Assembly (NCBI GenBank): GCA_963832165.1 | Contig: CAWHTE010000011.1 | Span: 32,001-96,000 of the forward strand | Reading direction: 5' to 3' | DNA length: 64,000 nt | Source of the DNA: an uncultured delta proteobacterium | GTDB taxonomy: Bacteria; Myxococcota_A; UBA9160; SMWR01 | Notes under the pieces: model-generated | The model's database searches: none | Told to the model about the DNA's origin: nothing | Seen by the model: only the letters and a program-made list of their open reading frames with translations | Made by a program: the position numbers and the translations under genes | Shown here: positions 943 to 16,965 of the stretch, one piece after another | How positions within the stretch are numbered: the first letter of the stretch is position 1 | Layout of the letters: the number at the start of each line of letters is the position of its first letter

Positions 943-3018
943 GTGGAGTCCGGCAGCGAGCAGCGCGTGTCGATCGCCGCGCCGCCGCTCGCGGCGGTGG
1001 CGATGTTGCTCGTGCTCCTGTGCGCGGCCCTGTACACGAACCGCTGCGCGGGCGACTTCGTCGGCGCAGACGATTCGGAGATCGCCGCGGACGCGGGCGT
1101 GCGCTGGCACGAGCTCTCGCTCTCGAATCTCGAAGCCGCGCTCGTGCGAGAGCATCCCGTCGCGCAGCTCTCCTTCGGCCTCAACTACCGCTTCGGGCGG
1201 CTCGACGCGTACGGCTACCACGGGCTGAACATCGCGATCCACTTCGCGAACGCTCTGCTCGTGTACGCGCTCGCGCTCGCGCTGTTCCGGCGCACGAAGC
1301 TCTCCGACGAGGCGGTGCCCTGGGCCGCGTTGGCGGGCGCGGCGCTGTTCGCCGCGCATCCGCTCCAGACCGAAGCGGTGAGCTGGGCGGCGCAGCGCGG
1401 GAGCCTGCTCGCGGCGCTGTTCGGTCTCGCGGCCGTGCTCTGCTGGCTGCGCGGTCGCGCCGGCGAGGCGCGCGTGCGCGCCGCGTGGTGGAGCGCGGCC
1501 GGTGTGTGCTGGCTGCTCGCGGTTGGAGCGCGGGAGAGCGCGCTCGGGCTCCCGCTCGCGGTCTGGCTCTGCACATGGCTGTGGAGCGGCTCCGCGCGCC
1601 GGGTCCCGATCGCGCTCGCGCTCTGCGTTGCGGCGGCAGTCGTCTGGCTCGGGTCGGCGCCGGCGCTCACGCTTCACGAGAGCCTCGTGGTGTGGCCGCT
1701 GCCGGCGCGTTTGAGTCTGGTCCACGAGCTCGGTGTCTCGCGGCTCGCGCTCGGCGCCGCGCTCGCGCTCCAGGCGCTGCTGCTCGGTGCAGCGGTCGCG
1801 GGGGCGCAGCGCCATCGCGTCGTGTCGTTCGCGGTGCTCTGGTTCCTGCTCTTCCACGCGCTCGACGCGGCGCTCGTGCCCGGGCCGCTCGCGGCCGAGC
1901 ACCGCAACTATCTGGCGCTCGCGGGTCCCGCGCTCTGCGCCGGCTATGCGCTGTTCTCGGCGCTTCCGCGCCGGCTCGGGCTCGCCACCGCGCTCTGCGT
2001 GCTCGCCGTGACCGCGGAAAGTCTCGCGACCCACGCGCGGGGCGAGCTGTGGCGCAGCCCGCTCGCGCTCTGGGACGACGCGATCGCGAAGAGCCCGCGC
2101 TCGGAGCGCGCGCTCGTCGAGCGCGGAGAGCTGCTCGAACGGAAGGGGCGCGCCGACGAGGCGCTCGCCGACTTCGAGCGCGCCGTGCAGTCGGCGCCGG
2201 ACTCCGCGCATGCGCGCGCGCGTCTCGCCGCGAGCCTCGCCGGCTTCGGCCGCGAGCGCGAGGCGCTTCCGCACGCGCAGCAGGGCGTCGCGCTCGATCC
2301 CGAGAGCGCCTCCGCGTACGCACTGCTCGGCCGGATCCAGGCGTCGCTGGGCGAGCTCGAGCCGGCGGCGGTCGCCTACGAGCGCGCGCTCGCACTCGGA
2401 GGCGAGACGGGCCTCGAGCGGCGGCTCGGCGATGTGCTCGTGCGGCTGGGCCGGTTCGAGGACGCGCTTCCCCACTACCGCGCCGCCATCGAGAGCGACC
2501 CCGGCGACGACGAAGCGCGCACGGGCGCCGGCGCGGCGCTCGTCGAGCTGCACCGCGAGCGCGACGCGCTCGCCTATCTCGAGCCGGCCGTCGAGAGCCA
2601 GCCGAATCCGCACTACCTCGTGCATTTCGCCGACGCGCTCTGGCAGCTCGGCGATGCGAACGGCGCGATCGACGCCGTTACGGTCGCGGTGCGCGTCGCA
2701 CCCGAGTGGCCCGGCGCGACCAGCCGGCTCGCGTGGATGCTTTCGGTGACGCGCGACGAAAAGCGCCGCGATCCCGCGCGCGCGCTGCGCATCGCCGATA
2801 CCGCGCTCGCGCGGGCGCCGAACGCGCTCGTGCTCGACGCGCGCGCGGCTGCGCTCGCGGCCGCCGGCCGCTTCGCGGACGCGCGCGCCGACGCCGAGCG
2901 CGCGGCATCGCTCGCGGGCGACGCGGCGCTCGCGGCGCGCATTCGCGTGCACGCCGAGTCCTATGCGCGGCACGAGCTCGTGCGCGAGCCCCCACGCCCC
3001 TTCGATCCGGGCTCGTGA
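943..3018 (+). CDS. TMTC-like multi-pass membrane protein (putative GT-C glycosyltransferase) with C-terminal TPRs
   Basis: N-terminal DD motif, HPLQTEAVSW, EHRNYL, many TM helices, then TPR-like repeats. Confidence 0.75.
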   Translation: MESGSEQRVSIAAPPLAAVAMLLVLLCAALYTNRCAGDFVGADDSEIAADAGVRWHELSLSNLEAALVREHPVAQLSFGLNYRFGRLDAYGYHGLNIAIHFANALLVYALALALFRRTKLSDEAVPWAALAGAALFAAHPLQTEAVSWAAQRGSLLAALFGLAAVLCWLRGRAGEARVRAAWWSAAGVCWLLAVGARESALGLPLAVWLCTWLWSGSARRVPIALALCVAAAVVWLGSAPALTLHESLVVWPLPARLSLVHELGVSRLALGAALALQALLLGAAVAGAQRHRVVSFAVLWFLLFHALDAALVPGPLAAEHRNYLALAGPALCAGYALFSALPRRLGLATALCVLAVTAESLATHARGELWRSPLALWDDAIAKSPRSERALVERGELLERKGRADEALADFERAVQSAPDSAHARARLAASLAGFGREREALPHAQQGVALDPESASAYALLGRIQASLGELEPAAVAYERALALGGETGLERRLGDVLVRLGRFEDALPHYRAAIESDPGDDEARTGAGAALVELHRERDALAYLEPAVESQPNPHYLVHFADALWQLGDANGAIDAVTVAVRVAPEWPGATSRLAWMLSVTRDEKRRDPARALRIADTALARAPNALVLDARAAALAAAGRFADARADAERAASLAGDAALAARIRVHAESYARHELVREPPRPFDPGS

Positions 3019-3832: not shown

Positions 3833-4567
3833 TCAGCGTACCGCGGCGAGCTCCCGTTCGTACGCGGCCACCTCCGAGAGCCCGACTTGCTCGAGCAGCT
3901 CGGCGCGCTGCGCGCGTGCCGCTGAATCCTCGGGCGTCGCGGCGATGCGGGACGAGAGCGCGCGGATCGCGTCGTACCAGAGTCCGCTCTGAGCGTAGAC
4001 GGAAGCCTCGTTCGCTCCGCCGGCGGACAGACGCGCACCCAGTGTCTCGTCGGCGGCACGTCGTTCGATCCATGCTCCCGACGTGAAGTCGCGTGAGCGG
4101 CGTTCGGGGCTGGACACGAGCGAGACGAACCAGAGATACCGCGTACCGGTCTGGAGCTTCACTCCTAGATCCGCGAGACGCACGGCTTGGATGCCCGCCC
4201 GCGCGGGCGCCGGCAGGGCTACCTCGACGAGCGGCTCGATCGACGTCTCGTCGCGGATCGTGAACTCGATCTGCGTGGATGTGGGCTCGGCCAGATACCA
4301 GAACAAGGTGGGCTGATCCGAGGTGGTGTAGCCGAGGTGATCGGGCGCGAGGATCTGGACCCCGCTGAAGCGGCCCATGCCGCGAATCCCCGCGCCGATC
4401 CGCCGCGCCGGGAAGTCGGCCGGCGGGGCGACGTAGGTGAGGGTGGGCTTGCTCGCCGCGTTCGGCGATGGCTGCTCGCAGCCGGACCGGCTCGGCGCCA
4501 ACACCGACGATGCGATGACCAGGCCGACCGCGAACAGCAGTACGCGCGATCGATGTGTGGTGCTCAT
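3833..4567 (-). CDS. Secreted DUF928 domain protein
   Basis: Signal peptide; PTLFWYL, YLWFVSLV, YAQSGLWYDA, LLEQVGL motifs; ATG at 4567. Confidence 0.8.
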   Translation of the reverse strand: MSTTHRSRVLLFAVGLVIASSVLAPSRSGCEQPSPNAASKPTLTYVAPPADFPARRIGAGIRGMGRFSGVQILAPDHLGYTTSDQPTLFWYLAEPTSTQIEFTIRDETSIEPLVEVALPAPARAGIQAVRLADLGVKLQTGTRYLWFVSLVSSPERRSRDFTSGAWIERRAADETLGARLSAGGANEASVYAQSGLWYDAIRALSSRIAATPEDSAARAQRAELLEQVGLSEVAAYERELAAVR

Positions 4568-4890
4568 ATGCGCCTCACCCACCGCCCGTGGCTCGGTATA
4601 CCGCGCCTCGCTCCGACTGGCTCCTGAATACCGCCCCGCATCCGAGGCGGCGCGAGCCGGCCGCAGGCGCGCTCCTCGCCGCGGTCTCTCGCGCGGAGGG
4701 ATCCTCCTCGGTATTGGAAACAGTGGGACCACCTTCTTTTCTGTCAGGGAGGTCGTGACGCCGCGGCCTGCCTAGCGCGGCGGCCGCACGCGGAACTCCT
4801 GCGTTACTGGCGCAGCGGGTTGGAAGCGTGAGTCGCCCGGCTGGGACGCCGTCACGCGGCAGATGCCGACACCGCGTTTTGTCACAAGCC

Positions 4891-5874
4891 TCACGAGTGA
4901 AGACCTCGCTTCCGGGATGAGCGCAGCATTGCCAAGGCGACGATTCCCACGCCGAGCAGCGCCCCCGCGCCGGGCTCGGGAATGAAGGCGAGCCCGCGCG
5001 GACCATCGAGGCCGCCTCCGACGGCAAAGGAATCGATGAATGCGCCGGTGGTTCCGTCGTAGCGCAGCACCCGATCATTCTGGAAGTCGCTTAGGTACAG
5101 GTGGGCATCGGGATCGGGTCCAAATGCCAGGAAGCCGTTGGGATCTCCCGGGTGAGGATCTACCGGCAGGAGGAACGAGCCGAGTGGTGCGCCGGTCGTG
5201 CCGTCGAAACGCAGGACGTCGCCTTGGACAAACGCCAACAGATCTCCGTTCGGTGCAAAGATCACGTCACCGATATTGATGCCGGGTGCCGTCGTCGCGA
5301 AGACACCGAGATACGCGCCGCTCGTTCCGTCGAAGCGCAAGACCTGGAAGGTGTTCCAGCTGCCCACGTAGAGATTCCCGTCGCTTCCGAAGGCGAGACC
5401 GGCGGGGCCGTCCAAAGGCGATCCTGCGCCGATGGTTCCAAGCAACGTTCCAGTAGCGACATCGACGCGGAACACGTGGTCGTTGCTGAAGACGGACCCG
5501 TAGAGGTCGCCATCGGGGCCGAAGAGGATGTCGTTGATTTGGGGCGGGTAACCCGAAGTGACGACGTCGATGAAGGCCCCGGTGCTCCCGTCGAAGCGCT
5601 TGACGCTTGGGTTCGAGCCTCCGCCGCCCACGTAGAGGTTGCCGTCGGGCCCGAAAGTCAAGCCGCGGGGGGCCGCCTGAGCGGAGGCACCACTGACGAA
5701 ATTGCCGATGTACGCCCCGGTCGTTCCGTCATAGCGCTTCACCTCGTTGGTGAGATCGCTGTTGACCAGCAGATCGATCGGCGCTGCCTCCGCGGCACGG
5801 ACGACTCCGCCGACGCCGACCAGCACGGCCACCGCGACGACCCGTGACCTCCAGTTGGAATTCATTCGCGACAT
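4891..5874 (-). CDS. Beta-propeller (NHL/Vgb-like) protein with PEP-CTERM sorting signal
   Basis: Repeated FGPDGNLYV / RYDGTTGAF units; C-terminal IPEP + TM helix + basic tail. Confidence 0.85.
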   Translation of the reverse strand: MSRMNSNWRSRVVAVAVLVGVGGVVRAAEAAPIDLLVNSDLTNEVKRYDGTTGAYIGNFVSGASAQAAPRGLTFGPDGNLYVGGGGSNPSVKRFDGSTGAFIDVVTSGYPPQINDILFGPDGDLYGSVFSNDHVFRVDVATGTLLGTIGAGSPLDGPAGLAFGSDGNLYVGSWNTFQVLRFDGTSGAYLGVFATTAPGINIGDVIFAPNGDLLAFVQGDVLRFDGTTGAPLGSFLLPVDPHPGDPNGFLAFGPDPDAHLYLSDFQNDRVLRYDGTTGAFIDSFAVGGGLDGPRGLAFIPEPGAGALLGVGIVALAMLRSSRKRGLHS

Positions 5875-5932
5875 GGTTCCCTCCTCTGCAAGGAGGTCGT
5901 GGCTTCTCCGCGATCTGGATCAGCAGATCGCG

Positions 5933-8900
5933 CTACGGACACCCGGCAGACGCGAGCATCGGACCGGGCACCCCGGCGATCGGCGCCGCGGCCGCGACCA
6001 CGGGCGCCGGCAGCCACCCGTCGGGCTCGGCAGGAATCCCGCCCGCGCCGCGCATCGCGAACGTGCCCGCGCGTTCGCCACCGCGTGTGGCGCAGCGCTG
6101 CTGCATCTGCGACGCGGCGTCGAGGACCGAAGAGGGCAGGGGTGTAAGCGATCCCGCGAGATCGGCATCGGGGCTCGCGATCTCGACCGTGCCCGAGAGC
6201 TCCGGATTGCCGGAGGACGCGCTCACGATGCTGCCCGGGAATGCGAAGAAGTGGTCCGCGGCGATCCGGATGTGGCCGCCGGATCCCTCACCGGCCTGCG
6301 CCGTGATCCGGCTTCCGTTCTGGAGGATCACGACCTCGGGGTCGATCGCGATGTTGCCGCCGGTGCCTCCGGTCACGGAGGCGGTGATCGAGCCGTCGTC
6401 GAGGTGGACCCGGTTCTTCGCCTGAACCGTGATGTCACCTCCGTCCGCACTCACGGCGCTGGTCGCGATCGCGCCACCCACGACTCGGAGGGTGTCGCTC
6501 ACGAGCGTTACCCTTCCCGCGTCTCCGGTGGGGACTTCGGGAGGTTCCGCGAGGTAGCCGCGGAAGAAGTCGACCCACACGTCCAGCTCGCCGAAGCCCT
6601 GGGCGCTCTCCGCCGACACCGCGCCGCCGTCCGCGATCTCGATGTGCGGCGCGCGCAACGTCACGTCTCCGCCCGCTCCGTCGGCGCCGGTTCGGCTCGT
6701 GATGACGGAGTGCTCGCCTTCGACGCGGATCCGCTCGCCGGCCTCGATGTCGACGCTGCCCCCGTGCCCCGAGCCCAAGGTGCTCGCGGAGACCGCGCCC
6801 GCGCCGCGCACGATCACCTGGCCACCGGCGCTAGGAGCGATCAGTGTGACCTCGCCCGCTGCGCCCCCCCTTCCACCCTCGATCAGCGCTGCGGCTCCCG
6901 AGTTCACCGATCCACCGTCGATCAGGATGCGCGGCGCTGACAAGGTCACATGCCCCGCCGGTCCCTCGTTCGTGGTGTTCGAGCTCACTGCGCTCACGTC
7001 GCCGAAGCGCGAGTGCCCGACGACCTCGATCGACTCGCGGGCGTCGAGCGTGACCGCACCACCTTGTGCCGGCGTGAACATGGTGACGCCGGACACGACA
7101 CCGCCCGAGGCGATGCGGATGCGATCGCCCCGCAGCAGGATCGAGCCCCCGTCGCTCCCTCGGACCGTCGCCGAGGTCACCCAGGCGCCTTCTTCGACGG
7201 TAATCTCCGGGGCGTACAGCTCGATCGATCCGCCAAAGCCGCCGCGGGTTCCCGAGCCGATCCCCGTCAAGAGCACGGGCTCGTCCCGAAGGAGCGGGGT
7301 CCAGTCGAAGCGCGGGCCGTTCTCATCGGTGATCCGGATCGACTGTGATGCGTCGATCAGGACATTTCCGGCGTTTCCGGATCCGATGGCGGTCACGAAG
7401 ATTCCGGCCCCTTCCTCGCCGTCTTCGCGACCGGGACCGATCTGCACCGTGTCCGCACGGATGAGAACGTCCCCACCGTCACCCCCCGCCCCGAAGTTTG
7501 AACGAGCCACGATCTGGCCGCCGTCGCGGAGCTCGAGTGCACCCGCGTCGATCGTGATCGACCCGCGTGGGCCTGGACCGTTGTTGGCGGTGCTGATCGA
7601 GCCGTCGCGAACGGTCACCGTACCCTCGGTGCGGATAGCGATCGCGCCCGCGCCGCCCTGCGTGCCGGAATCGGCGCTGATCGTTCCGCCATCGACGCGG
7701 AGAGAGCCGGCATCGATCGCGATCGTGCCCGCGTCGCCGACGGAAGCGCGCGCACCGATGGAGGCGGAGTTCACGAGCTCGATCTCACCCAGGGCGCCGA
7801 TCGAGATCGCGCCGGCATCGCCAGTCCCCCCGGATTCGACGCCGATCGCGCCGTTCTCGACGCGCACGGAACCGGCATCGATCGCGATGCTGCCGCCCCG
7901 GCCTTCCCCGCCCGATATCGCGCTGATCGACGCGTTGTGGAGGCGGACGGAGTCCGCATCGACGGTGATCGTGCCGGCATCGCCCGATCGCCCCGACCGC
8001 GCGCTGACCGACCCAACGTCGATCGAGAGCGCGCCCGTGTCGATCGCGATCACACCGCCATCGCCGGATCCGCCGCCTCCCGCACTGATCGTGCCGTTTC
8101 TGAGCTCGAGCGAGCCGGCTTCGACTGCGATCGTGCCCGCATCGCCCAGTCGAGAATCGGCGAGGAGCAATCCCCGGTTCACGAGCTCGATCGGGCCGCC
8201 GCTCACGATTTCGATCGCTCCCGCGCTGCCCGCTGCCGAGCTGCTCACGGAGACCCGGCTGCTGTCGAAGCGCAGGGAATCGTTCGCGTCGATCTCGAGG
8301 CGCCCTGGGGTGGCGGAGTCGATGTTCTCCGCGAGCACCTGTGAGTGATCGATCACGATCTGGCCGCCGCGGATCGCGATCGTCCCTGCCGGCGCGCCGA
8401 GCGTGGTGCCGGTCAGCGCGATGTCGCCGCCGGCGAGCTCCAGTGTCTTTCCGGGCAGAACCGACAGCGCGCTGCCCGTCACATCGATGGGGGCCGCCAC
8501 AATCGTCTCGGGCAGGAAGCCGAACGCCGACGGTCGTGCTGTCGAGAGCACGCTCGAGAGCTGGAGCCTGGCGTCGAATCGGTCACCGCCCTCCTCGAAG
8601 CCGAGGTAGTCGGCGGTCGCAGCGTGGAACGAGCCCGGCACTTCGAGCCGGGCGCCCTCGCCGAATACGATGCCGCGCGGATTGAGCAGCCAGATGTCGG
8701 CGTCGGGCATCGTCGAGCGCAGCGTGCCGTCGATGTTGGACGGATCGCCTCCCGTGACGCGCGAGATCACGTTCTTGACGTGGTCGGGCCCCGTGAAGCT
8801 GGCGATCTCGCCGGTGCCGATCCCGAAGCGCGCGAAGCTGTGGAAGAGATTGTCTCCGCGCAGTGAGCCGAGGTCGTCGCTGATCAGGTAGTCGACCGTC

Positions 8901-9046
8901 TGGCCGGTCGGATCGATCCCCACGCCCACGTCGACGGCCGCACCGCCGAGCGATCCGTCGGTGGCGATCGCGTTCTGGGCTTCCGCCGGCGGCGATGCCA
9001 GGCCTACTACCCCAAACAACGCGAGCGATCGCGAGACGAGCTTCAT
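5933..9046 (-). CDS. TpsA-like filamentous haemagglutinin-domain exoprotein
   Basis: Signal peptide, NLFHSF, NVISRVTGG, LLNPRGIVFG TPS domain, GDAGTI beta-helix repeats, C-terminal GGIPAEP. Confidence 0.88.
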   Translation of the reverse strand: MKLVSRSLALFGVVGLASPPAEAQNAIATDGSLGGAAVDVGVGIDPTGQTVDYLISDDLGSLRGDNLFHSFARFGIGTGEIASFTGPDHVKNVISRVTGGDPSNIDGTLRSTMPDADIWLLNPRGIVFGEGARLEVPGSFHAATADYLGFEEGGDRFDARLQLSSVLSTARPSAFGFLPETIVAAPIDVTGSALSVLPGKTLELAGGDIALTGTTLGAPAGTIAIRGGQIVIDHSQVLAENIDSATPGRLEIDANDSLRFDSSRVSVSSSAAGSAGAIEIVSGGPIELVNRGLLLADSRLGDAGTIAVEAGSLELRNGTISAGGGGSGDGGVIAIDTGALSIDVGSVSARSGRSGDAGTITVDADSVRLHNASISAISGGEGRGGSIAIDAGSVRVENGAIGVESGGTGDAGAISIGALGEIELVNSASIGARASVGDAGTIAIDAGSLRVDGGTISADSGTQGGAGAIAIRTEGTVTVRDGSISTANNGPGPRGSITIDAGALELRDGGQIVARSNFGAGGDGGDVLIRADTVQIGPGREDGEEGAGIFVTAIGSGNAGNVLIDASQSIRITDENGPRFDWTPLLRDEPVLLTGIGSGTRGGFGGSIELYAPEITVEEGAWVTSATVRGSDGGSILLRGDRIRIASGGVVSGVTMFTPAQGGAVTLDARESIEVVGHSRFGDVSAVSSNTTNEGPAGHVTLSAPRILIDGGSVNSGAAALIEGGRGGAAGEVTLIAPSAGGQVIVRGAGAVSASTLGSGHGGSVDIEAGERIRVEGEHSVITSRTGADGAGGDVTLRAPHIEIADGGAVSAESAQGFGELDVWVDFFRGYLAEPPEVPTGDAGRVTLVSDTLRVVGGAIATSAVSADGGDITVQAKNRVHLDDGSITASVTGGTGGNIAIDPEVVILQNGSRITAQAGEGSGGHIRIAADHFFAFPGSIVSASSGNPELSGTVEIASPDADLAGSLTPLPSSVLDAASQMQQRCATRGGERAGTFAMRGAGGIPAEPDGWLPAPVVAAAAPIAGVPGPMLASAGCP

Positions 9047-9208
9047 CCACGAATCCTGGTGGCGCCATTCTAAACCGGGTCGGTTGCAAAGAGATCCCTT
9101 GAAAAGGTCGTTAAATCTCGACGATTCGGATCACGCGCCTGACTCCGCATCATCCGTAATTCTTGACCGGCCGGATTTCGCGGCCTTAGCATGCTCGGGG
9201 GTTGCTCG

Positions 9209-11362
9209 ATGCATCGAATTGGCCCGCTCGCGGCCGCCTTCTGCCTGCTCGCCGGGATGAATGCCGCTGGCGCGGACGGCGAGCCCACACGAGAGGTGTC
9301 GCCGCTGATCCGCGAGGCCGAAGCCCTGCAGGCGCTCGGCCGCTATGCGGATTCACTCGACAAGCTCGCGGAGGCCGACGCGGCCGCAGGCGCGAAGGCC
9401 GACCCCGCTCAGCGAGCCGCGATCGAAGGCGCGATCGGCAACGCCTACATCGCACTGGGCCCACCTGCGGCGGCGCGCGAGCACCTGACGAAGGCGCTCG
9501 ATCTGGCGCGCCGCGCCGCGGCCGAGCCGCTTGCCGCGGCGCTGCTCGTCAACCTCGGAAACCTCGACGCGTCGCAGGGGTCGTACGCCGAAGCGGCGCG
9601 CGGCTACACCGAAGCCGCAGCGCTGGCCGAGAAGTCGGGCGACCGCGCCCTCGCCGCGCGCGCCCATGCGAACCGAGCGCAGGCCGCGCAGCGCGGCGGA
9701 GCGCGGGACGGCGAGGTGCGCACGGCGCTCTCCCGCGCGACCGAGCTCGCAGACAACCTGCCCGAGTCGTCGGCGAAGGCCGATGTGTTGATCAACGCCG
9801 GCCGGACCTACGCCCGGCTCGGCGACCTGGAGCCGGCGCATGCAACGCTGCGTCGTGCGCAGAGTGCCGCTGAGGCGATCGACGACACGCGCACGCAATC
9901 GTACGCACTCGGATACCTCGGGGCCCTCTACTACGACCAGGGCAGGCTCGAGGAAGCGCTCGATCTCTCCCGCCGCGCGCTCTTCCTCGCGCAGCGCGCG
10001 AATGCACCCGAGTCGCTCTATCGCTGGCACTGGCAGGTGGGCCGGATCCTCGCCCGTCAACGCAAGCCCGCAGAGGCGATCGCGTCCTATCAGCAGGCGC
10101 TGACGGTGCTATCGACGATCCGCTTCGACATGGCACACGGCTACGCGACCGGCGGCGCGTCGTTCCGCGAGACGGTCGGGCCGGTCTTCTTCGAGCTCGT
10201 GGACCTGCTGCTCGCGACGGCACCGAGCAGCGAGAAGACCGACGCCTATCAGGCGCGTCTGCACGAGGTGCGCGACACGCTCGAGCGGCTCAAGGCCGCG
10301 GAGCTGCGCGACTACTTCGGCGACGAGTGCGTCGACGCGCTCCAGGCGAAGGTCGAGAGCCTCGATCGGGTCGCGCGCGCCGAGGTCGTGATCTACCCGG
10401 TCGTACTGCCGGACCGGCTCGAGCTCCTGCTCACGTTCCCGAACGGCATACGGCGCGCGACCGTGCCGGTCGGCGCCGAGACGCTCTCGGCGGAAGTGCG
10501 GACGCTGCGCCGCCTCCTCGAGAAGCGCACAACGCTGCAATTCCTTCCGCACGCCCAGAAGGTCTACGACTGGCTCGTGCGTCCCTTCGCATCCGATCTC
10601 GAGAGCGTTTCCACCAGCACGCTCGTCTTCGTTCCGGACGGTCCGCTTCGCACGATCCCGATCGGCGCGCTGCACGACGGGAAGCGCTTCCTGATCGAGA
10701 CATACGCCGTTGCCACGTCGCCGGGGCTCAGCCTCACCGATCCACGACCGCTCGAACGGCACGAGCTGAGCGCGCTCCTGATAGGCCTGAGTCGATCGGT
10801 GCAGGGTTTCCCGCCGCTCGCGCACGTGCCCGATGAGCTCGACTCGATTCGCGCGCTCTACGGCGGCGAGGTACTGCTGAATCAGCAGTTCCTGATCCCG
10901 CGTGTCGAGGCGGAGCTCAGCGGGCGTGAGTTCAGCGTGGTCCACGTGGCCACGCACGGCGAATTTTCGGAGGACGCCGAGCGCTCGTTCCTGCTCGCCT
11001 GGGACGGCCGGATCAGCATGGATCGCCTGGGCGAGGTGATCGGAGCGGGCCGCTTTCGCGATCGGCCGATCGAGCTGCTCACGCTATCGGCCTGCGAGAC
11101 GGCGGAGGGCAGCGAGCGCGCCGCGCTCGGCCTGGCGGGTGTGACGGTCCGCGCCGGCGCGCGCAGCGCGGTCGGGACGCTCTGGAGCGTGAACGACGCC
11201 GCGGCAGCCGACCTGATCGGCGAGTTCTATGGGCAGCTGCATTCGAGCCCGGTCTCGAAGGCGGTGGCGCTGCAGCGTGCGCAGCAGAAGGTATTGCGCG
11301 ACGTGAACCACGCGCATCCGTACTACTGGGCGCCGTTCTTGTTGATCGGGAACTGGTTGTGA
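9209..11362 (+). CDS. Exported TPR-CHAT (caspase-like) protease
   Basis: Signal-peptide-like N-terminus, TPRs, FVPDGPL, VHVATHG (His), LSACETA (Cys), HPYYWAPF; alternative ATG at 9191. Confidence 0.9.
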   Translation: MHRIGPLAAAFCLLAGMNAAGADGEPTREVSPLIREAEALQALGRYADSLDKLAEADAAAGAKADPAQRAAIEGAIGNAYIALGPPAAAREHLTKALDLARRAAAEPLAAALLVNLGNLDASQGSYAEAARGYTEAAALAEKSGDRALAARAHANRAQAAQRGGARDGEVRTALSRATELADNLPESSAKADVLINAGRTYARLGDLEPAHATLRRAQSAAEAIDDTRTQSYALGYLGALYYDQGRLEEALDLSRRALFLAQRANAPESLYRWHWQVGRILARQRKPAEAIASYQQALTVLSTIRFDMAHGYATGGASFRETVGPVFFELVDLLLATAPSSEKTDAYQARLHEVRDTLERLKAAELRDYFGDECVDALQAKVESLDRVARAEVVIYPVVLPDRLELLLTFPNGIRRATVPVGAETLSAEVRTLRRLLEKRTTLQFLPHAQKVYDWLVRPFASDLESVSTSTLVFVPDGPLRTIPIGALHDGKRFLIETYAVATSPGLSLTDPRPLERHELSALLIGLSRSVQGFPPLAHVPDELDSIRALYGGEVLLNQQFLIPRVEAELSGREFSVVHVATHGEFSEDAERSFLLAWDGRISMDRLGEVIGAGRFRDRPIELLTLSACETAEGSERAALGLAGVTVRAGARSAVGTLWSVNDAAAADLIGEFYGQLHSSPVSKAVALQRAQQKVLRDVNHAHPYYWAPFLLIGNWL

Positions 11363-11369
11363 AGCTGCA

Positions 11370-11401
11370 ATGGCGGGATGCGCTTCGCTTTCCCGCCCTA
11401 C
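11370..11401 (-). repeat. GTAG-type REP palindrome (type B) between convergent genes
   Basis: ATGGCGGGATGCGCTTCGCTTTCCCGCCCTAC, 29/32 identical to 15968-15999. Confidence 0.8.
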
Positions 11402-11405
11402 GAGA

Positions 11406-12701
11406 TCAACGACTTCGCTCGAACGCCGCCGCGTCGGTAAGGCCGACCTGGTCGAGCAATGCCGCCCTGTGCGCGTGAAGCCGCGCCGCTTCGGGCTCGG
11501 CGGTGATCCAGCTGCACAGCTGATCGAACGCATCGTACCAGTAGCCCGACTCGGCATAGAGATGTGCGGCGCTCCCCGGAGCGGGCGCCGAGAGGCGCGC
11601 GGCGATCTCACCGGTGGGCGGCGCATAGCGGATCGCCCCCCCCGACACCACATCCTGCGAACGTCGCTCGGGGTTGCGCACGAGCGCGACGAACCATCGA
11701 TAGTCGACGCCCGATCGCAGCTGGACCGCGCGCGCAGCCAGGTCCAAACGGTGCACACCGGCCTCGTGCGGCCCGGGCAGCATCGCTTCCAGCAGCGGCT
11801 CCGACGCACTCGGGTCGACGATCGTCACCTCGACCGACAGCGGTGTCGGATCCGACAGGAACCAGTAGAGGGATGGAGATCCGTGCGAGGTCGCTCCTAC
11901 CTGCGCGGGGCTCAATGCCAGGGGAGGCGCGATCTCGGCTGCGGCGTTCCGCGTGGCATCCCCGACGCGAACGGAGGGTCCAGCCGCGAGCGCGCCGGGC
12001 GCGTAGAGCGGAGGTTCCGCGGGGACCAGCGCGGCGATCTGGATCGCGCCAGGCGGCTCGGCCGGCTCCGTCGTCTCCTCCGCGACGACCGCGGGCGCGG
12101 GGCGGGCCGGCAGGGCAGGCAGCTGTGGCGGCGCGGGTAGCGTCGTTAGTTCGGGTTCGGGTGGTGCTGGAGAGGGCGCTACCTCGGGCGGTGCTGCCGG
12201 CGGGCCGGGCTCGACCTTCGCCACGGGCGCAGGGGAAACCGGCGGAGTCTCGCGCGCCGGGCGCGAGAGCAGCACGGCCACCGGGATCGCGATCACCGCG
12301 ATGACGGCGGCCGCGAGTGCAGGCCACCACCGCGCCGTGGCGCGCCTATCGCGCGCGCGTGGGCGCGCCGCGGAAACCGCGGCGAAGTCGAAGCGCTGCA
12401 ACACGGCGAGCTCGGTGCGGCAGGCCGGGCAATTCGCGAGATGCGTTTCGAGCCGCGCACGTTCGTTCGGGGCCAGATGCGACGACGGCGATGCCAACGC
12501 GATGAGCTCGGCCTCGGATGCATGCGCCGCGCCCGCGCCGTCGGGCGATCCCAGGGCCGCCTTCAACGCCGCGAAGTCGCCTACCGCGCGCGAGCAGTCC
12601 GGGCAGATCGGATAGTGATCGCGGAATTCCGTCCACGCCGCCGCGTGCGGGTCGACGGCGAACTCAGCGAGATCGATGTCCCGAGCCCTGGTGCAGCGCA
12701 C
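11406..12701 (-). CDS. Anti-sigma factor (two zf-HC2-like motifs, TM helix, Pro-rich linker) fused to DUF928
   Basis: HYPICPDC and HLANCPAC; one TM; C-terminal PSLYWFL...YAESGYWYDA; lies downstream of an ECF sigma. Confidence 0.8.
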   Translation of the reverse strand: MRCTRARDIDLAEFAVDPHAAAWTEFRDHYPICPDCSRAVGDFAALKAALGSPDGAGAAHASEAELIALASPSSHLAPNERARLETHLANCPACRTELAVLQRFDFAAVSAARPRARDRRATARWWPALAAAVIAVIAIPVAVLLSRPARETPPVSPAPVAKVEPGPPAAPPEVAPSPAPPEPELTTLPAPPQLPALPARPAPAVVAEETTEPAEPPGAIQIAALVPAEPPLYAPGALAAGPSVRVGDATRNAAAEIAPPLALSPAQVGATSHGSPSLYWFLSDPTPLSVEVTIVDPSASEPLLEAMLPGPHEAGVHRLDLAARAVQLRSGVDYRWFVALVRNPERRSQDVVSGGAIRYAPPTGEIAARLSAPAPGSAAHLYAESGYWYDAFDQLCSWITAEPEAARLHAHRAALLDQVGLTDAAAFERSR

Positions 12702-12774
12702 CCGGCCCCCTCCCCATCACTCGGATGCAGTGTCGTTTCCACCCATGGAGGCCGTGGGCGGCGGCCGAATCAGA

Positions 12775-13329
12775 TCACTTTTCATCGCGGTGCTCCCGGA
12801 GAGCCTCCCGGAGCTCCGCGAGGCCATCCCGCAGGTACCGCTTGAGCGTCCCCAGCGGGATGCCGTTCGCCAGGGCCGCCTCCTCATAGGTCTGGCCTGC
12901 CCCATAGACGGCCACCACGAGATCGCGCTTCTTGTCGGAAATCTTTGCGAGCGCGCGCCGGAGGTCTTCGCGCGCTTCGGCTTCGAGCTGAACGGCGCGC
13001 GGGCTCTCGTCGCTGGCGATCACCTCTTCCCATGCGAGGTCCTTGCGTTGATTCAGCACGATTCTGAGTCGGTCTAAATACTTGAATCGTGCCGTCGTCT
13101 TGAGGAAGGCGACGATCGCCTGCGGGTCTCGCAGTCTGCCCGCGCGCACCGCCAAGGCTGCGGCGGCAATCACCTCTTGCACGACGTCCTCCCATTCGTC
13201 GCGAAAGTCGTAGGCGTTCCAGCGCACGAGGAAACCGTTCACGAGGCGGCTCGTCTGCGCGAGAGCCAGTCGATCGCCGGCGATCACCCGGTTCACCACC
13301 GCGATCCAGTCCCGCTCCTGCACCGACAC
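12775..13329 (-). CDS. ECF RNA polymerase sigma factor
   Basis: EDVVQEV region 2; TYEEAA...GIPLGTLKRYLRDG region 4; 184 aa. Confidence 0.9.
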   Translation of the reverse strand: MSVQERDWIAVVNRVIAGDRLALAQTSRLVNGFLVRWNAYDFRDEWEDVVQEVIAAAALAVRAGRLRDPQAIVAFLKTTARFKYLDRLRIVLNQRKDLAWEEVIASDESPRAVQLEAEAREDLRRALAKISDKKRDLVVAVYGAGQTYEEAALANGIPLGTLKRYLRDGLAELREALREHRDEK

Positions 13330-13390
13330 CCGGCCAGCCTATCAAAAGGCCTTGCCGGACCGAGGATCGATCGTGTGATAATGCGGCTTC

Positions 13391-15124
13391 GTGTCCGCGG
13401 CGTGGCACAGGCGTCGATCCACGTGCGTGTCGGCGCTGTTCGCGGCGGCGTTCGCGTCGACGCCGGCCCGGGGACAGGTACCTCGCATCCCGTTCGAGCG
13501 CCCGGGAGATGTCCGACCCGAGGCCGAGTTACGGACACCCGAAGAGCGGCCGCACTTCACGCTTCCTCCAGTACCGCCGCCGACCGGCGAGGGGCCTCTT
13601 TCGGAGCACGCGCGCGTGGTCGCGCGCCAGTTCGTGGTGATCGGCAGCACGGTCTTCTCGGATCAAGAGCTCGCCGCCGTCACGGCGCCATACATCGGGC
13701 GTCCCCTGGCGGCCGAAGACCTCGAACATCTCCGCCAGCAGCTGACATTGCTCTACGTGAACGAGGGCTACCTGAATTCCGGAGCGCTGCTTCCCGATCA
13801 GCAGATCGAGGACGGGGTGATCCGATATCAGATCGTCGAGGGTCGGCTCACCGACGCCACCATCGAGGGGAACCGCCGGTTCCGCGATCGCTATCTCGAA
13901 AGTCGCATCCTGCGCGGCGCCGACACACCGCTCGACGTCTCGAAGCTCGCGGAACAGCTCGAGCTGCTCCAGCAGGACGCGCGCATCCGCCACATCGAGG
14001 CGGAGCTCTTGCCCGGCGAGCGCCCCGGCGAAGCGCGTCTGCGGACGACCTTCGAAGAGGAGTCTCCGCTGTTCGCTGCGCTGGAATTCAGCAACCACGA
14101 CTCACCGAGCGTCGGCCAGACCCGAATGCAAATTGACCTGGGCAATCACAACCTGACGGGCTGGGGCGACGCGCTTCGCGCCATGGGGGCGTGGAACCTG
14201 GGGCTGTGGGAGGGAGAGGTCGAATACGAGATCCCGATTACGCGGTGGGACACGAAGATCGGCGCGCGATTCCACTACGGCTCGAGCGAAGTCGTCGAGG
14301 AGCCTTTCGACGCGATCGACATCACGAGTCGGGAGCGCACGATCGCGATCGACGTGAGCCAGCCCCTGTACGAATCCGTGCGAAACCGGCTCGGCATCGG
14401 GCTCACTGCCGAATATCGCGAGACCAAGACCTATCTGCTGGACGAACTGTTTCCATTCGAGGAAGGAACCGACGACGGCCAGGTCGTCGTGAGCGTGATT
14501 CGCGCGAGCCAGGTATGGCTCTATCGCGACCTCAGACAGGTGATTTCCGCGCGGTCACAATTCAGCCTGGGCGTCGACGCGCTCGGTGCGACCACCGATC
14601 GGTGCGCATTCGATCTGAGCGGCGTGTGCACGAAGCGCGCTGGCATCCCGGATGCACACTTTCTCGCGTGGCTCGGCCAACTCCAGCTCGTGCGCCGCTT
14701 CGATCCATGGGGAATCGAGCCGGTCTTCCGCACCGATGTCCAGCTCGCAACGGAGCCGCTCTTCTCGCTCGAGCAATACGCCGTGGGTGGTCATCACACC
14801 GTTCGCGGCTACCGCGAGAACCAGCTCGTGCGCGACAACGGGCTTACGTCGTCGCTCGAGGTGCGCATTCCCGTCTGGACCGATGCCGCGCGCGAGCTGA
14901 CCGTGCAGCTCGCCCCGTTCTGCGACGCCGGCCGCTCGTGGAACCGCAAACGCGACGAGGTCAGCCCGCGCACGCTCGCGAGCGTGGGCGTCGGACTGCG
15001 CACGTCCTGGCGGCGCCTGCACGGAGAGCTCTTCTGGGGGCATCGCATCGAGCGAGTCGACAAGCCCGACGATCACACCCTCCACGACGAGGGCGTGCAC
15101 TTCGCGATCGCGGCGCGCTTCTGA
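13391..15124 (+). CDS. TpsB (ShlB/FhaC/HecB) outer-membrane transporter
   Basis: POTRA (LYVNEGY), VRGYREN loop motif, C-terminal Phe. Confidence 0.9.
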   Translation: MSAAWHRRRSTCVSALFAAAFASTPARGQVPRIPFERPGDVRPEAELRTPEERPHFTLPPVPPPTGEGPLSEHARVVARQFVVIGSTVFSDQELAAVTAPYIGRPLAAEDLEHLRQQLTLLYVNEGYLNSGALLPDQQIEDGVIRYQIVEGRLTDATIEGNRRFRDRYLESRILRGADTPLDVSKLAEQLELLQQDARIRHIEAELLPGERPGEARLRTTFEEESPLFAALEFSNHDSPSVGQTRMQIDLGNHNLTGWGDALRAMGAWNLGLWEGEVEYEIPITRWDTKIGARFHYGSSEVVEEPFDAIDITSRERTIAIDVSQPLYESVRNRLGIGLTAEYRETKTYLLDELFPFEEGTDDGQVVVSVIRASQVWLYRDLRQVISARSQFSLGVDALGATTDRCAFDLSGVCTKRAGIPDAHFLAWLGQLQLVRRFDPWGIEPVFRTDVQLATEPLFSLEQYAVGGHHTVRGYRENQLVRDNGLTSSLEVRIPVWTDAARELTVQLAPFCDAGRSWNRKRDEVSPRTLASVGVGLRTSWRRLHGELFWGHRIERVDKPDDHTLHDEGVHFAIAARF

Positions 15125-15234: not shown

Positions 15235-16965
15235 GTGGAAGCACTCGCGGTGGTCCGGGCGTTCGACGCGCCCGATGCAGAGGATCGCCTCATCGAGCTG
15301 GCGCGCTCGGGAGCGCCGCTGCGCAGAGTGCTCGCGGCATTGGCCGGGCGGCTCGCCGCGACGCGCGCGTGGGATCGGCTCGGCTACGTGCGGCTGCGCG
15401 ACTACGCGGTCGAGCGGCTCGGTCTGTCAGCCCGCCAGGTGCAGGATCTCGCGCACGTCGATCGCGAGCTGCGTGGGCTGTCCGGCATCGACGCCGAGTT
15501 CGTCGCCGGACGGATCACGTGGACGAAGGCGCGGCTCCTGTGCCGGGTCGCGACGCCCGAGGACGAGGAGGCGTGGCTGGATCTGGCCCAGCGCCTGACC
15601 GCGCGCGCTCTCGCACGCGAGGTGCGCGCGGTGGATGCGCGGTCACTCGAAGCGGGCGGGTTGCTCGACAGCGACGAGGACGGCGTCGAAGACGTGCCGC
15701 GCGAGACGATCTGGCTATCCGTGACTCCGCGCGTGCGCGCGCGCTGGAGTCGCGCGCGGCTGCTCGCGCGCCGGGTCGCTGGGGAGGCGCTGTCGCAAGC
15801 CGCGGTGGCCGAGGTGATTTCTGCGGAAGTGATCTCGGCGATCGGCGTCGATGGGGATCCCAGGCTCGCCACGCCGCTTTACCTTTCGCGACCTGCAGTT
15901 CCGGGGCACGGTAGTCGTAGGGCGGGAGGAGCGGAAGGCGGATCCCGCCTTCCGCGGCTGGTACCTGATGACGGGATGCGCTGCGCTTTCCCGCCTTACG
16001 AGCTGCCGGCATTCCTCGCACCGCTCGTCGAGGGCCTCGAGTCCTGCGACGCGATCGAACTCGACGCGCGGCTGCGGCGGGCGCTGCGGATCGAACAGCG
16101 GTGGCTCGCGGAGATCGGCCCGCTGCTGCGCGAGGTCGCGCGCACGCGGAGCTACCGGTTCCGCGGCAGTCCGAATCTGGCGGTGTTCGCACGCGAGCGG
16201 CTCGGCGTGTCTCCGCGCAAGGCGCAGGCGCTGCTGCGGCTCGAGCGAGCCTGCGCGAATTCGCCGGAGCTGCGCGCCGCGTTCTCGAGCGGTCGCCTGT
16301 CCTGGGTACAGGCCCACGCGTTGATACCGATCGTCGTGCTCGAGCACGCCGAGCCGTGGCGCGCGGCGTGGGTGGCACACGCTGAGTCGGTCTCGGTGCG
16401 CCGCCTCGAGGAGGACGTGGAGCGCGCGATCGTCACCGGCGATCTCGAGGTGCAAACGGGTGCGCACTCCACGGTCGAAAAATCACAAGAGGAGTGCCTC
16501 GCGAATCAGAAAGGCATGGCCAGCCTGTTCTTTGCCGCATCCGCCGACGGGGCGCGCCTGTTCAAGGCGGTCCTCGCGACCGCACAGCGGCGGATCGAGC
16601 GGCGGAACGGCCGCACGGCGAGCGAGAGCGAGGCGCTCGACGCGATGCTCGAGCACTGCTTCGAGACCTGGACGCTGCCGAACGCAAAGGTGCAGCGCGA
16701 GCATCGCGTGTTCGAGCGCGACGGCTGGCGCTGCACGGTGCCAGGTTGCTCGTCCTTCCGGAACCTGCACGACCACCACGTCCAGTTCCGATCGGCGGGT
16801 GGCTCCAACGAGCTCTGGAATCGCACCACGCTTTGCGCGGCGCACCATCAGCGCAGCGTGCACGCGGGAATCGGGCGGATTCGCATCCGCGGCCGCGCGC
16901 CCGACGGGCTGCGCTTCGAGCTGCCGCTCCTAACTTATGGCCCGGGAGAACGGATTCTCCGCTGA
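15235..16965 (+). CDS. HNH endonuclease with duplicated DUF222-like helical domains
   Basis: Two ERLG(L/V)S...GR(I/L)xW repeats; C-terminal RDGWRCTVPGC...HHV...GGSN...NRTTLCAAHH. Confidence 0.85.
   Translation: MEALAVVRAFDAPDAEDRLIELARSGAPLRRVLAALAGRLAATRAWDRLGYVRLRDYAVERLGLSARQVQDLAHVDRELRGLSGIDAEFVAGRITWTKARLLCRVATPEDEEAWLDLAQRLTARALAREVRAVDARSLEAGGLLDSDEDGVEDVPRETIWLSVTPRVRARWSRARLLARRVAGEALSQAAVAEVISAEVISAIGVDGDPRLATPLYLSRPAVPGHGSRRAGGAEGGSRLPRLVPDDGMRCAFPPYELPAFLAPLVEGLESCDAIELDARLRRALRIEQRWLAEIGPLLREVARTRSYRFRGSPNLAVFARERLGVSPRKAQALLRLERACANSPELRAAFSSGRLSWVQAHALIPIVVLEHAEPWRAAWVAHAESVSVRRLEEDVERAIVTGDLEVQTGAHSTVEKSQEECLANQKGMASLFFAASADGARLFKAVLATAQRRIERRNGRTASESEALDAMLEHCFETWTLPNAKVQREHRVFERDGWRCTVPGCSSFRNLHDHHVQFRSAGGSNELWNRTTLCAAHHQRSVHAGIGRIRIRGRAPDGLRFELPLLTYGPGERILR
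15917..15999. repeat. Inverted REP doublet (REPIN-like) embedded in-frame in the HNH gene
   Basis: Type A copy at 15917-15953 and type B copy at 15968-15999 match the intergenic copies at 889 and 11370. Confidence 0.82.

Follow-up and report, generated by a model that had tools for sequence, protein, structure and literature searches.

The window analysed here, a 64,000-nucleotide stretch of genome from an uncultured delta proteobacterium (contig CAWHTE010000011.1), contains seven neighbouring genes encoding a two-partner secretion (TPS) exoprotein and its transporter (TpsA and TpsB), a TPR-CHAT cysteine protease, a sigma factor of the extracytoplasmic function (ECF) type, its anti-sigma factor with a DUF928 ectodomain, a free DUF928 protein and a PEP-CTERM beta-propeller protein. 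Five of these seven genes form a conserved cassette in this Myxococcota-type class, and the cassette is apparently undescribed in the literature searched. Judging from neighbourhoods and promoter-like sites, it very probably represents one functional system in which this sigma factor drives tpsA, surface-protein cargo and the anti-sigma gene. We also put forward, as a tentative reading slightly short of an even chance, a relay from outside to inside: activated by the TpsA tail, the periplasmic CHAT protease would cut the anti-sigma factor after Arg251 and free the sigma factor. An earlier sequence-only reading, which had proposed proteolytic trans-envelope signalling at this locus, is partly supported as a whole; the seven open reading frames (ORFs) and the domains it assigned were confirmed with Pfam and NCBIfam.

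Conservation of the cassette and its outputs

The fusion of a zinc-binding domain, a transmembrane segment and DUF928 recurs in 36 near-full-length relatives among 72 protein matches, the named ones being from Myxococcota metagenome-assembled genomes, and about 40 copies occur among the 225 genomes in our survey of the class. For neighbourhood counts, 46 anti-sigma–DUF928 loci were picked by match rank, blind to their neighbours, and 23 of these have at least 7 kb on either side (L096, a duplicate of L026, was dropped from all counts). An ECF gene is present in all 23 long loci, CHAT in 19, TpsA in 19 and TpsB in 14; extending L110, where CHAT lies just past the first locus boundary, raises CHAT to 20/23. 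The survey of zf-HC2–DUF928 fusions called for by the sequence-only reading thus bears out its expectation of wide co-occurrence. Because the source genome (5.5 Mb, 89% complete) has only two CHAT genes, yet 19 of 23 homologous loci carry one, this clustering is not attributable to chance. Across all 46 loci the ECF gene adjoins the anti-sigma gene in 44, a second, free DUF928 occurs in one, and CHASE2 occurs in none. The window holds no CHASE2 receptor either, in keeping with the earlier suggestion that an ECF/anti-sigma output replaces CHASE2; the absence of CHASE2 holds for the locus and window, but not for the genome, which encodes two CHASE2-adenylate cyclases.

In a comparison sample of 68 free-DUF928 loci from many phyla, CHASE2/cyclase genes occur in 44, CHAT in 42, TpsB in 38, TpsA in 33 and ECF in only one. 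CHAT is therefore found beside DUF928 under either output (42/68 free and 32/46 fused loci), and these counts indicate that the TpsA/TpsB/CHAT/DUF928 front end is shared, while the membrane output is either a CHASE2-cyclase or an anti-sigma/ECF pair. DUF928 itself appears to act in the periplasm as a common adaptor to which different outputs can be attached. The organisms with the ECF cassette are uncultured, but the front end in its CHASE2-type form is also present in Rhodoferax/Comamonadaceae and Nitrospira genomes. Three Nitrospira-type loci (L049, L087 and L095) carry three tandem free DUF928 paralogues after TPR-CHAT, and no CHASE2 was detected in the locus DNA examined.

Class-wide, this CHAT subfamily and DUF928 occur together in 74 genomes, CHAT only in 8, DUF928 only in 20 and neither in 123; that is, DUF928 is present in 74/82 genomes with the subfamily and in 20/143 without it. 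Among fusion-bearing genomes seemingly without CHAT, G147 and G039 do carry one in the fusion locus, at the end of the contig, and a divergent CHAT lies near the fusion locus of G048, while no CHAT match was found in G096 and G171, whose fusions lie on short contigs, or in G146. A quick tree of CHATs of at least 480 amino acids (aa) and free of X separates 30 from the ECF-type or fused loci of this class from 31 others (99*), a split that also tracks taxonomy. Sigma factors of the same group also occur with double-zinc anti-sigmas bearing other ectodomains, small beta-rich or SnoaL-like by eye (L132–L135 and L067). No CHAT or TPS gene lies near in the three long loci with such anti-sigmas lacking DUF928 (L133–L135); L067, with a different ectodomain, has a TPR-CHAT neighbour and an LRAG stretch just past the transmembrane helix.

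AlphaFold modelled residues 219–431 of the anti-sigma factor (91 rows, pLDDT 95) as an Ig/FN3-like sandwich followed by TPR-like helices. The sole whole-domain structure match is the C-terminal Ig+TPR module of Magnetospirillum MtxA (Z 10.8, root-mean-square deviation 4.0 A, 152 aligned residues, 12% identity), the next match reaching Z 6.8. Foldseek gave E 1e-4 and a TM-score of 0.50 for the DUF928 model against MtxA, and an MtxA-labelled Atlas cluster at 0.83 serves as a lead only. A DUF928 sequence profile matched no PDB chain, and a search for longer DUF928 proteins returned 42 matches in which Pfam labels only DUF928 with or without zf-HC2, which is weak evidence because the sequences were not all inspected. 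On the basis of the model, DUF928 and MtxA are likely homologous and would represent one kind of periplasmic adaptor. The accessible account of MtxA describes a secreted protein whose gene is followed by a CHASE2-adenylate cyclase gene and whose deletion has no phenotype (PMC4439547).

Our literature search found nothing joining DUF928 with CHAT, and what it found on DUF928 mentions only a CHASE2 neighbour, subscription papers being mostly outside the search; among the matches listed, nothing joins TPS with CHAT or an anti-sigma factor.

The promoter motif and its cargo

The candidate promoter GATCC-N17-CGAC was derived by gapped-word counting upstream of cargo genes; a 4+4-word search upstream of ECF, tpsA, tpsB and chat genes yielded nothing above shuffles. 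The motif is intergenic and precedes anti-sigma genes (often across the TGA stop codon of the sigma gene), cargo genes and some tpsA and sigma genes. With the main matrix, built from 29 sites of which none comes from the window, scores of at least 14 were obtained for 29/39 anti-sigma, 13/60 cargo, 6/44 sigma, 3/29 tpsA, 0/25 chat and 0/23 tpsB genes, and for 1/146 control genes, counts that are partly circular through the training sites. A matrix made from 18 anti-sigma sites alone still found 10/60 cargo genes against 1/146 control genes. Within the source genome the main matrix places the tpsA site of the window at the top (23.0) and the PEP-CTERM site fifth (19.6); the anti-sigma site is weaker (14.0) and occupies the same position in relatives. 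The anti-sigma-only matrix ranks the window sites 7, 59 and 88, with tpsA at 7 (19.0) and PEP-CTERM at 88 (11.8). The motif is rare in free-DUF928 loci (2/68, one with a sigma of the same group) and present beside same-group sigmas that have other anti-sigmas (3/5), as expected of a sigma-specific promoter.

Genome-wide there are 20 matches scoring at least 16, versus 2–14 in column-permuted controls. None of the eight inspected matches outside the locus stands before a surface-protein gene, and most lie in or against other ORFs; the regulon therefore looks local. Only 1 of the 33 PEP-CTERM-like ORFs of the genome has a motif site. Cargo across the loci is varied and includes propeller-esterases, FG-GAP/ASPIC, haloperoxidase-like, thrombospondin-repeat and PEP-CTERM proteins, and the PEP-CTERM propeller of the window likewise looks like an output of the sigma factor instead of a signalling part. 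RseP and several exosortases are encoded in the genome.

The sigma gene itself has TAnnnT 5–9 nt before a start codon in 33/44 relatives, against a shuffled mean of 2.5, and looks leaderless, with transcription from a housekeeping-type -10 box. The regions 13329–13391 and 9046–9209 of the window separate divergent gene pairs by very short intergenic distances, with housekeeping-type -10 boxes just before the start codons. This arrangement suggests leaderless transcripts for sigma and tpsB.

The TpsA tail, the CHAT protease and the candidate cut site

The protease has the hallmarks of clan CD, a His-Cys dyad and a caspase/separase fold behind TPRs. H589 and C635 are invariant in 57/57 aligned relatives, so that the dyad is intact, as had been noticed from the sequence. 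The protease also looks exported, again as first suggested: judged from hydropathy only, a signal-like N-terminal hydrophobic segment is present in 33 of 44 CHAT rows, and the 11 rows without it comprise 2 TpsA fusions and 9 truncated or frameshifted ORFs. The modelled TPR-CHAT part of a natural TpsA-CHAT fusion (L119) matches Csx29 best, and also separase and DdvA (the last at E 1e-10), while the CHAT sequence against the PDB recovered only TPRs plus Csx29 at E 0.29.

TpsA ends in a conserved tail of about 70 residues with one invariant cysteine. C985 (the invariant one) and C1036 are the only cysteines of the window TpsA, and free TpsA tails contain exactly two in 48/51 cases, the second near the C-terminus. 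Of free CHATs, 39/46 contain exactly two cysteines: the catalytic C635, and C380, conserved without exception in 57/57. In eight loci, one of them in this genome, the tail is fused directly to TPR-CHAT, and the fused state requires at least three label changes on the quick CHAT tree. All eight fusions keep the tail cysteine and the linker cysteine equivalent to C380 and lack the terminal cysteine, and the six complete ones have exactly three cysteines. In the AlphaFold model of L119, TPR-CHAT has a mean pLDDT of 85.5, and tail residues 6–84 fall below 50 and are covered by 7/49 rows. Because tail and protease each have one invariant extra cysteine, a disulfide link between them is suggested. 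A physical TpsA-tail/CHAT link, which the sequence-only reading had anticipated, is on this evidence likely. The simplest reading is that the tail cysteine pairs with the C380 equivalent in fusions, and that a swap from C1036 to C380 can occur in split systems; alternatively, a C380–C635 latch may be opened by the TpsA tail.

On the substrate side, R251 is present in 46/46 anti-sigmas and 77/80 free DUF928s in the alignment (A2, the anti-sigma alignment, was built without P0063 and P0066, which have no zinc domain). S, G or A comes next in 44/46 anti-sigmas and 75/77 free DUF928s, while the neighbours of R251 vary and the glycine-rich motif context drifts in anti-sigmas. The model is least confident in the block that contains R251 (pLDDT 70 vs mean 95). 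In two Desulfatirhabdium DUF928 loci (L079 9073–10194 and L088 2221–3922), up to seven tandem [ST]RG repeats replace the single motif. D669 of CHAT, the putative equivalent of the S1 aspartate of separase, is invariant in 57/57 CHATs, and Csx29 lacks an Asp there in a weak alignment (E 0.29). Separase requires a P1 Arg together with a pocket Asp (PMC10317155), and HetF, a bacterial CHAT protein, is reported to cut PatU3 at R117/S118 with a need for only those positions (PMC9457339). The Arg and small residue before the DUF928 core resemble the HetF site and make R251 a candidate by analogy; cleavage there by CHAT is, on balance, marginally favoured.

In the proposed relay, TpsA would pass through TpsB but keep its C-terminal tail in the periplasm, closed by a C985–C1036 disulfide as in HMW1/HxuA-type anchors. 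The tail would dock on TPR-CHAT, probably by disulfide exchange from C1036 to C380, and contact, pull or the export state of the filament may turn the protease active; surface or cell contact is a natural guess for the input signal. CHAT would then cut at R251 and the folded DUF928 cap would be shed, after which, following the DdvA precedent, RseP would cut the uncapped transmembrane helix and the zinc-binding domain would release the sigma factor. The GATCC-N17-CGAC pattern is present before tpsA, the surface-protein gene next to it and the anti-sigma gene, and its reading by sigma would give more adhesin and surface cargo plus negative feedback, with CHAT, TpsB and sigma lacking such a site. 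Elsewhere among bacteria, the TpsA/TpsB/CHAT front end instead feeds into a free DUF928 and a CHASE2-adenylate cyclase.

Several observations weigh against this relay. In the window anti-sigma, and in no other of the 46, R251 is followed by Asn. Free DUF928s keep the full Arg motif in genomes that lack this CHAT subfamily (of five checked, four have other CHATs, G074, 93% complete, has none, and Peptidase_C14 occurs in 0/5), and the motif may therefore be a binding element. For DdvA itself, self-cleavage of CHAT was not observed, and mutating the dyad left wild-type behaviour (PMC11506125). Three of the 23 long ECF loci (L105, L116 and L122) have no CHAT or TPS gene nearby, their genomes carrying CHATs elsewhere. 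The motif stands directly upstream of tpsA in only the 3/29 loci given above, tpsA often lying behind cargo genes that bear it, and the divergent ECF loci L150, L153 and L154 have no promoter site. Finally, two genera supply many of the loci, so that the counts overstate independence.

An unlikely alternative is that R-x5-R is a docking element: DUF928 would bind CHAT or CHASE2 and signal by binding, the anti-sigma would be served by another site-1 protease or by none, as in FecR-type control, and CHAT would have its substrate elsewhere. Retention of the motif where this CHAT subfamily is absent fits this view, as do R245 and a WYD/RxxLL surface about as conserved as R251, a motif region modelled with fair confidence (pLDDT 86 and 70), the CHASE2 cyclase adjoining the structural relative MtxA, and the unproven cleavage by DdvA. 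However, anti-sigmas retain only the Arg and the small next residue as the surrounding context drifts, the tandem [ST]RG repeats are more easily read as redundant cut sites than as a fixed interface, and the CHAT dyad is invariant.

It is rather improbable that the cassette follows LapG/CdrA logic, in which CHAT would release the adhesin by cutting the TpsA tail in the periplasm, and the anti-sigma DUF928 would sense the fragment or hold the protease. Disulfide-closed periplasmic tails do anchor HMW1 and HxuA, and Pseudomonas aeruginosa CdrA is released when the periplasmic cysteine protease LapG cuts its tail, according to the available text (PMC5422565); the two-cysteine tail of most free TpsAs resembles such an anchor, and many tails contain a GRxG stretch. 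The tail nevertheless has no near-invariant Arg column, whereas DUF928 has one; in the eight fusions the tail is joined to the protease and its anchor cysteine is lost; and an anti-sigma factor, unlike LapD, is an outside-in device.

Very unlikely is an alarm against phages or predators on the model of DdvA/DdvS or Csx29/Csx30, in which TpsA would be a decoy receptor and sigma would be directed to defence genes: the protease fold does match Csx29 and DdvA, and DdvS is described as controlling a CBASS-CRISPR island (PMC11506125), but no Cas1 was found in the genome (a PADLOC scan was not part of the search) and the motif-bearing genes code for the adhesin, the anti-sigma and, as far as annotation goes, surface proteins that are secreted (FG-GAP, propeller-esterase, haloperoxidase-like). 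Scarcely credible, finally, is an ECF pair that only transcribes tpsA and cargo on an unrelated cue, with CHAT as their maturation protease and clustering as mere co-regulation, since the orphan ECF/anti-sigma pairs (3/23) and the widely varying gene order and orientation that would suit it are opposed by DUF928 travelling with CHAT under either output, by the lack of an ECF promoter at CHAT and by the absence of CHAT neighbours from related anti-sigmas without DUF928.

Genomic surroundings and relation to known systems

Table 1. Features of the locus, in window coordinates
Position	Strand	Feature	Basis or remark
3833..4567	-	Free DUF928 protein, secreted, 244 aa, canonical RRIGAGIRG motif	Accessory; outside the conserved ECF cassette
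4891..5874	-	Secreted beta-propeller with PEP-CTERM-type sorting tail	Slot for variable cargo, probably an output of the sigma
5893..5922	-	ECF-type promoter-like site GATCC-N17-CGAC before the PEP-CTERM gene	Matrix score
5933..9046	-	TpsA beta-helix exoprotein, 1037 aa	PF05860 E 1e-30, TIGR01901
5936..6205	-	Conserved TpsA C-terminal tail, residues ~948–1037, predicted periplasmic anchor and CHAT contact	Holds C985 and C1036
9104..9133	-	ECF-type promoter-like site, 87 nt before tpsA	Matrix score
9191..11362 (start 9191 or 9209)	+	TPR-CHAT cysteine protease, predicted signal peptide	PF12770 E 6e-56
11406..12701	-	Anti-sigma factor: two zinc-binding HxxxCxxC units, transmembrane segment ~128–146, Pro-rich linker, DUF928 (predicted periplasmic)	zf-HC2 and DUF928 matches
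11946..11969	-	R245-x5-R251-N252, candidate cut site before the DUF928 core	Residue conservation
12748..12777	-	ECF-type site of lower score across the stop codon of sigma, ahead of the anti-sigma gene	Score 14.0
12775..13329	-	ECF sigma factor, 184 aa, apparently leaderless	TIGR02937
13391..15124	+	TpsB, ShlB/FhaC-type Omp85 transporter	PF03865, PF08479

TpsA, with its signal peptide and TPS domain, and TpsB, with POTRA and Omp85 domains, form a two-partner (type Vb) secretion pair. The PEP-CTERM match of the propeller is weak (E 0.008, below cut-off), although the IPEP-hydrophobic-basic tail is plain in the sequence. The likely start of the free DUF928 gene is the ATG at 4567 and not the GTG at 4732. 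This protein had been proposed as a decoy; with a second DUF928 in only one of the 46 other ECF loci, and a motif form typical of CHASE2-linked DUF928s, a standing decoy is rejected as a general feature.

Two further window genes lie close to the cassette. Directly after tpsB, 15235–16965 (+) encodes a 576-aa protein with a C-terminal HNH-like motif and a weak IscB-model match at residues 490–545, which we presume to resemble the DUF222/HNH repeat proteins. Two genes from the cassette on the other side, 943–3018 (+) encodes a multi-pass membrane protein with C-terminal TPRs that we take to be like the TMTC-type glycosyltransferases; it might modify surface proteins.

The genome yields four DUF928, two CHAT, two CHASE2 and three TPS-domain matches. 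A second cassette (L014 4820–13390, C7:772.8–781.4 kb) comprises tpsB, a PEP-CTERM-type gene that is split, a TpsA with a frameshift and TPR-CHAT fused to it, and a gene for a cyclophilin-PEP-CTERM protein; the 19 kb contain no DUF928, sigma or ECF promoter site. In L012 (8864–11662, C7:307–310 kb) a secreted DUF928 is encoded directly after a CHASE2-adenylate cyclase, and neither CHAT nor TPS genes lie in the vicinity; this pair could be served in trans by the CHAT of the window. A degenerate DUF928 remnant without the second Arg of the motif and with no adjoining transducer lies in L013 (7446–8285, C7:548.4–549.3 kb), and L076 has a similar transmembrane-DUF928 remnant without zinc domain or motif. 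The other CHASE2-adenylate cyclase (L015 8119–14524, C1:711–717 kb) faces a 1128-aa protein resembling, by eye, a FecR-TPR-TonB-dependent receptor and recalling NsrA/CyaK. Sinorhizobium meliloti CHASE2 cyclases are described as receiving their signal through an outer-membrane protein (NsrA-CyaK, PMC13001267), and the accessible accounts of that pair and of MtxA-CHASE2 (PMC4439547) give no known mechanism involving CHAT.

The closest known system is DdvA/DdvS of Myxococcus xanthus, in the same phylum by the NCBI names of relatives, in which an ECF sigma is held by a zinc-binding single-pass anti-sigma factor and a periplasmic TPR-CHAT is proposed to make the site-1 cut ahead of RseP (PMC11506125). 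The window system likewise has an N-terminal zinc-binding domain (zf-HC2, invariant H/C), one transmembrane segment and an adjacent ECF gene. In DdvA, however, TPR-CHAT is the periplasmic domain of the anti-sigma itself, whereas here CHAT is separate or fused to TpsA and the ectodomain is DUF928; the cytoplasmic part also has two zinc units, a TPS pair is attached and the predicted targets are surface proteins, not CBASS/CRISPR. In HetF/PatU3/HetZ of Anabaena, a CHAT cuts an inhibitor after Arg and before a small residue, which is proposed to free a sequestered regulator, but the CHAT domain and PatU3 are cytoplasmic at the divisome, without TPS or DUF928 in the text available (PMC9457339). 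The sequence-only reading had looked to type III-E Csx29/Csx30/CASP-sigma, in which TPR-CHAT cuts an anti-sigma factor upon allosteric activation and sigma sites lie within the locus itself; that system is cytoplasmic and RNA-triggered, with no Arg dependence in the accessible account (PMC10028731), and DdvA/DdvS or HetF/PatU3 is the better analogue. The window has no array or CRISPR-spaced repeat and the genome no Cas1 (Cas7-11 was not searched for), consistent with the earlier statement that CRISPR is absent; a CRISPR link is rejected.

Other systems share single elements. The TpsA/TpsB/CHAT/DUF928/CHASE2-cyclase cassettes have the same front end and DUF928, but their output is cyclic AMP via CHASE2 and their DUF928 is free. 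HMW1/HxuA and CdrA-LapG resemble the predicted arrangement by description, the tails not having been compared in sequence, in their C-terminal periplasmic Cys-pair tail and a cysteine protease at the tail; CdrA-LapG differs in its inside-out control via cyclic di-GMP, with the adhesin released and no sigma output in the available text (PMC5422565). Kaur et al. (PMC8195603) computed links of caspase-like proteases, CHASE2 and ECF sigmas in EACC2-caspase systems with an ECF sigma and DUF1822, in which the caspase is cytoplasmic and fused to the sensor and the accessible portion mentions neither TPS nor DUF928. The actinobacterial ECF54 group, without anti-sigma, has CHAT neighbours, the sole CHAT mention in the part of that supplement available (PMC7826278). 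A FecI/FecR/FecA arrangement does not apply, as no FecR or TonB-dependent receptor match was found in the window or ECF loci and the outer-membrane partner is TpsB.

We regard the locus as a split, adhesin-coupled variant of DdvA/DdvS-type protease-gated anti-sigma control rather than an entirely new kind of system; what makes it interesting is the adhesin input, together with residues and a promoter that can be tested. It bears on two questions of the field, what activates periplasmic TPR-CHAT proteases such as DdvA and what the ligand of CHASE2 receptors is. The cassette offers the 70-residue TpsA tail, with its single invariant Cys, as a candidate activator, the bond at R251 of the anti-sigma as a candidate substrate site and a defined ECF promoter as a read-out, and these candidate parts are small enough for tests with purified proteins or in a laboratory host. 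In a broader and doubtful generalisation, a large family of TpsA filaments may be sensors whose disulfide-swapping tail engages an Arg-specific caspase-like protease that cuts DUF928/MtxA-type domains, the cut uncapping an anti-sigma factor in this class or making a CHASE2 ligand in many other phyla. If this were true, DUF928, MtxA and the input of CHASE2 would be assigned at once, and the relay would be a third trans-envelope signalling route beside TonB-dependent transducers and the outer-membrane protein/DegS pathway.

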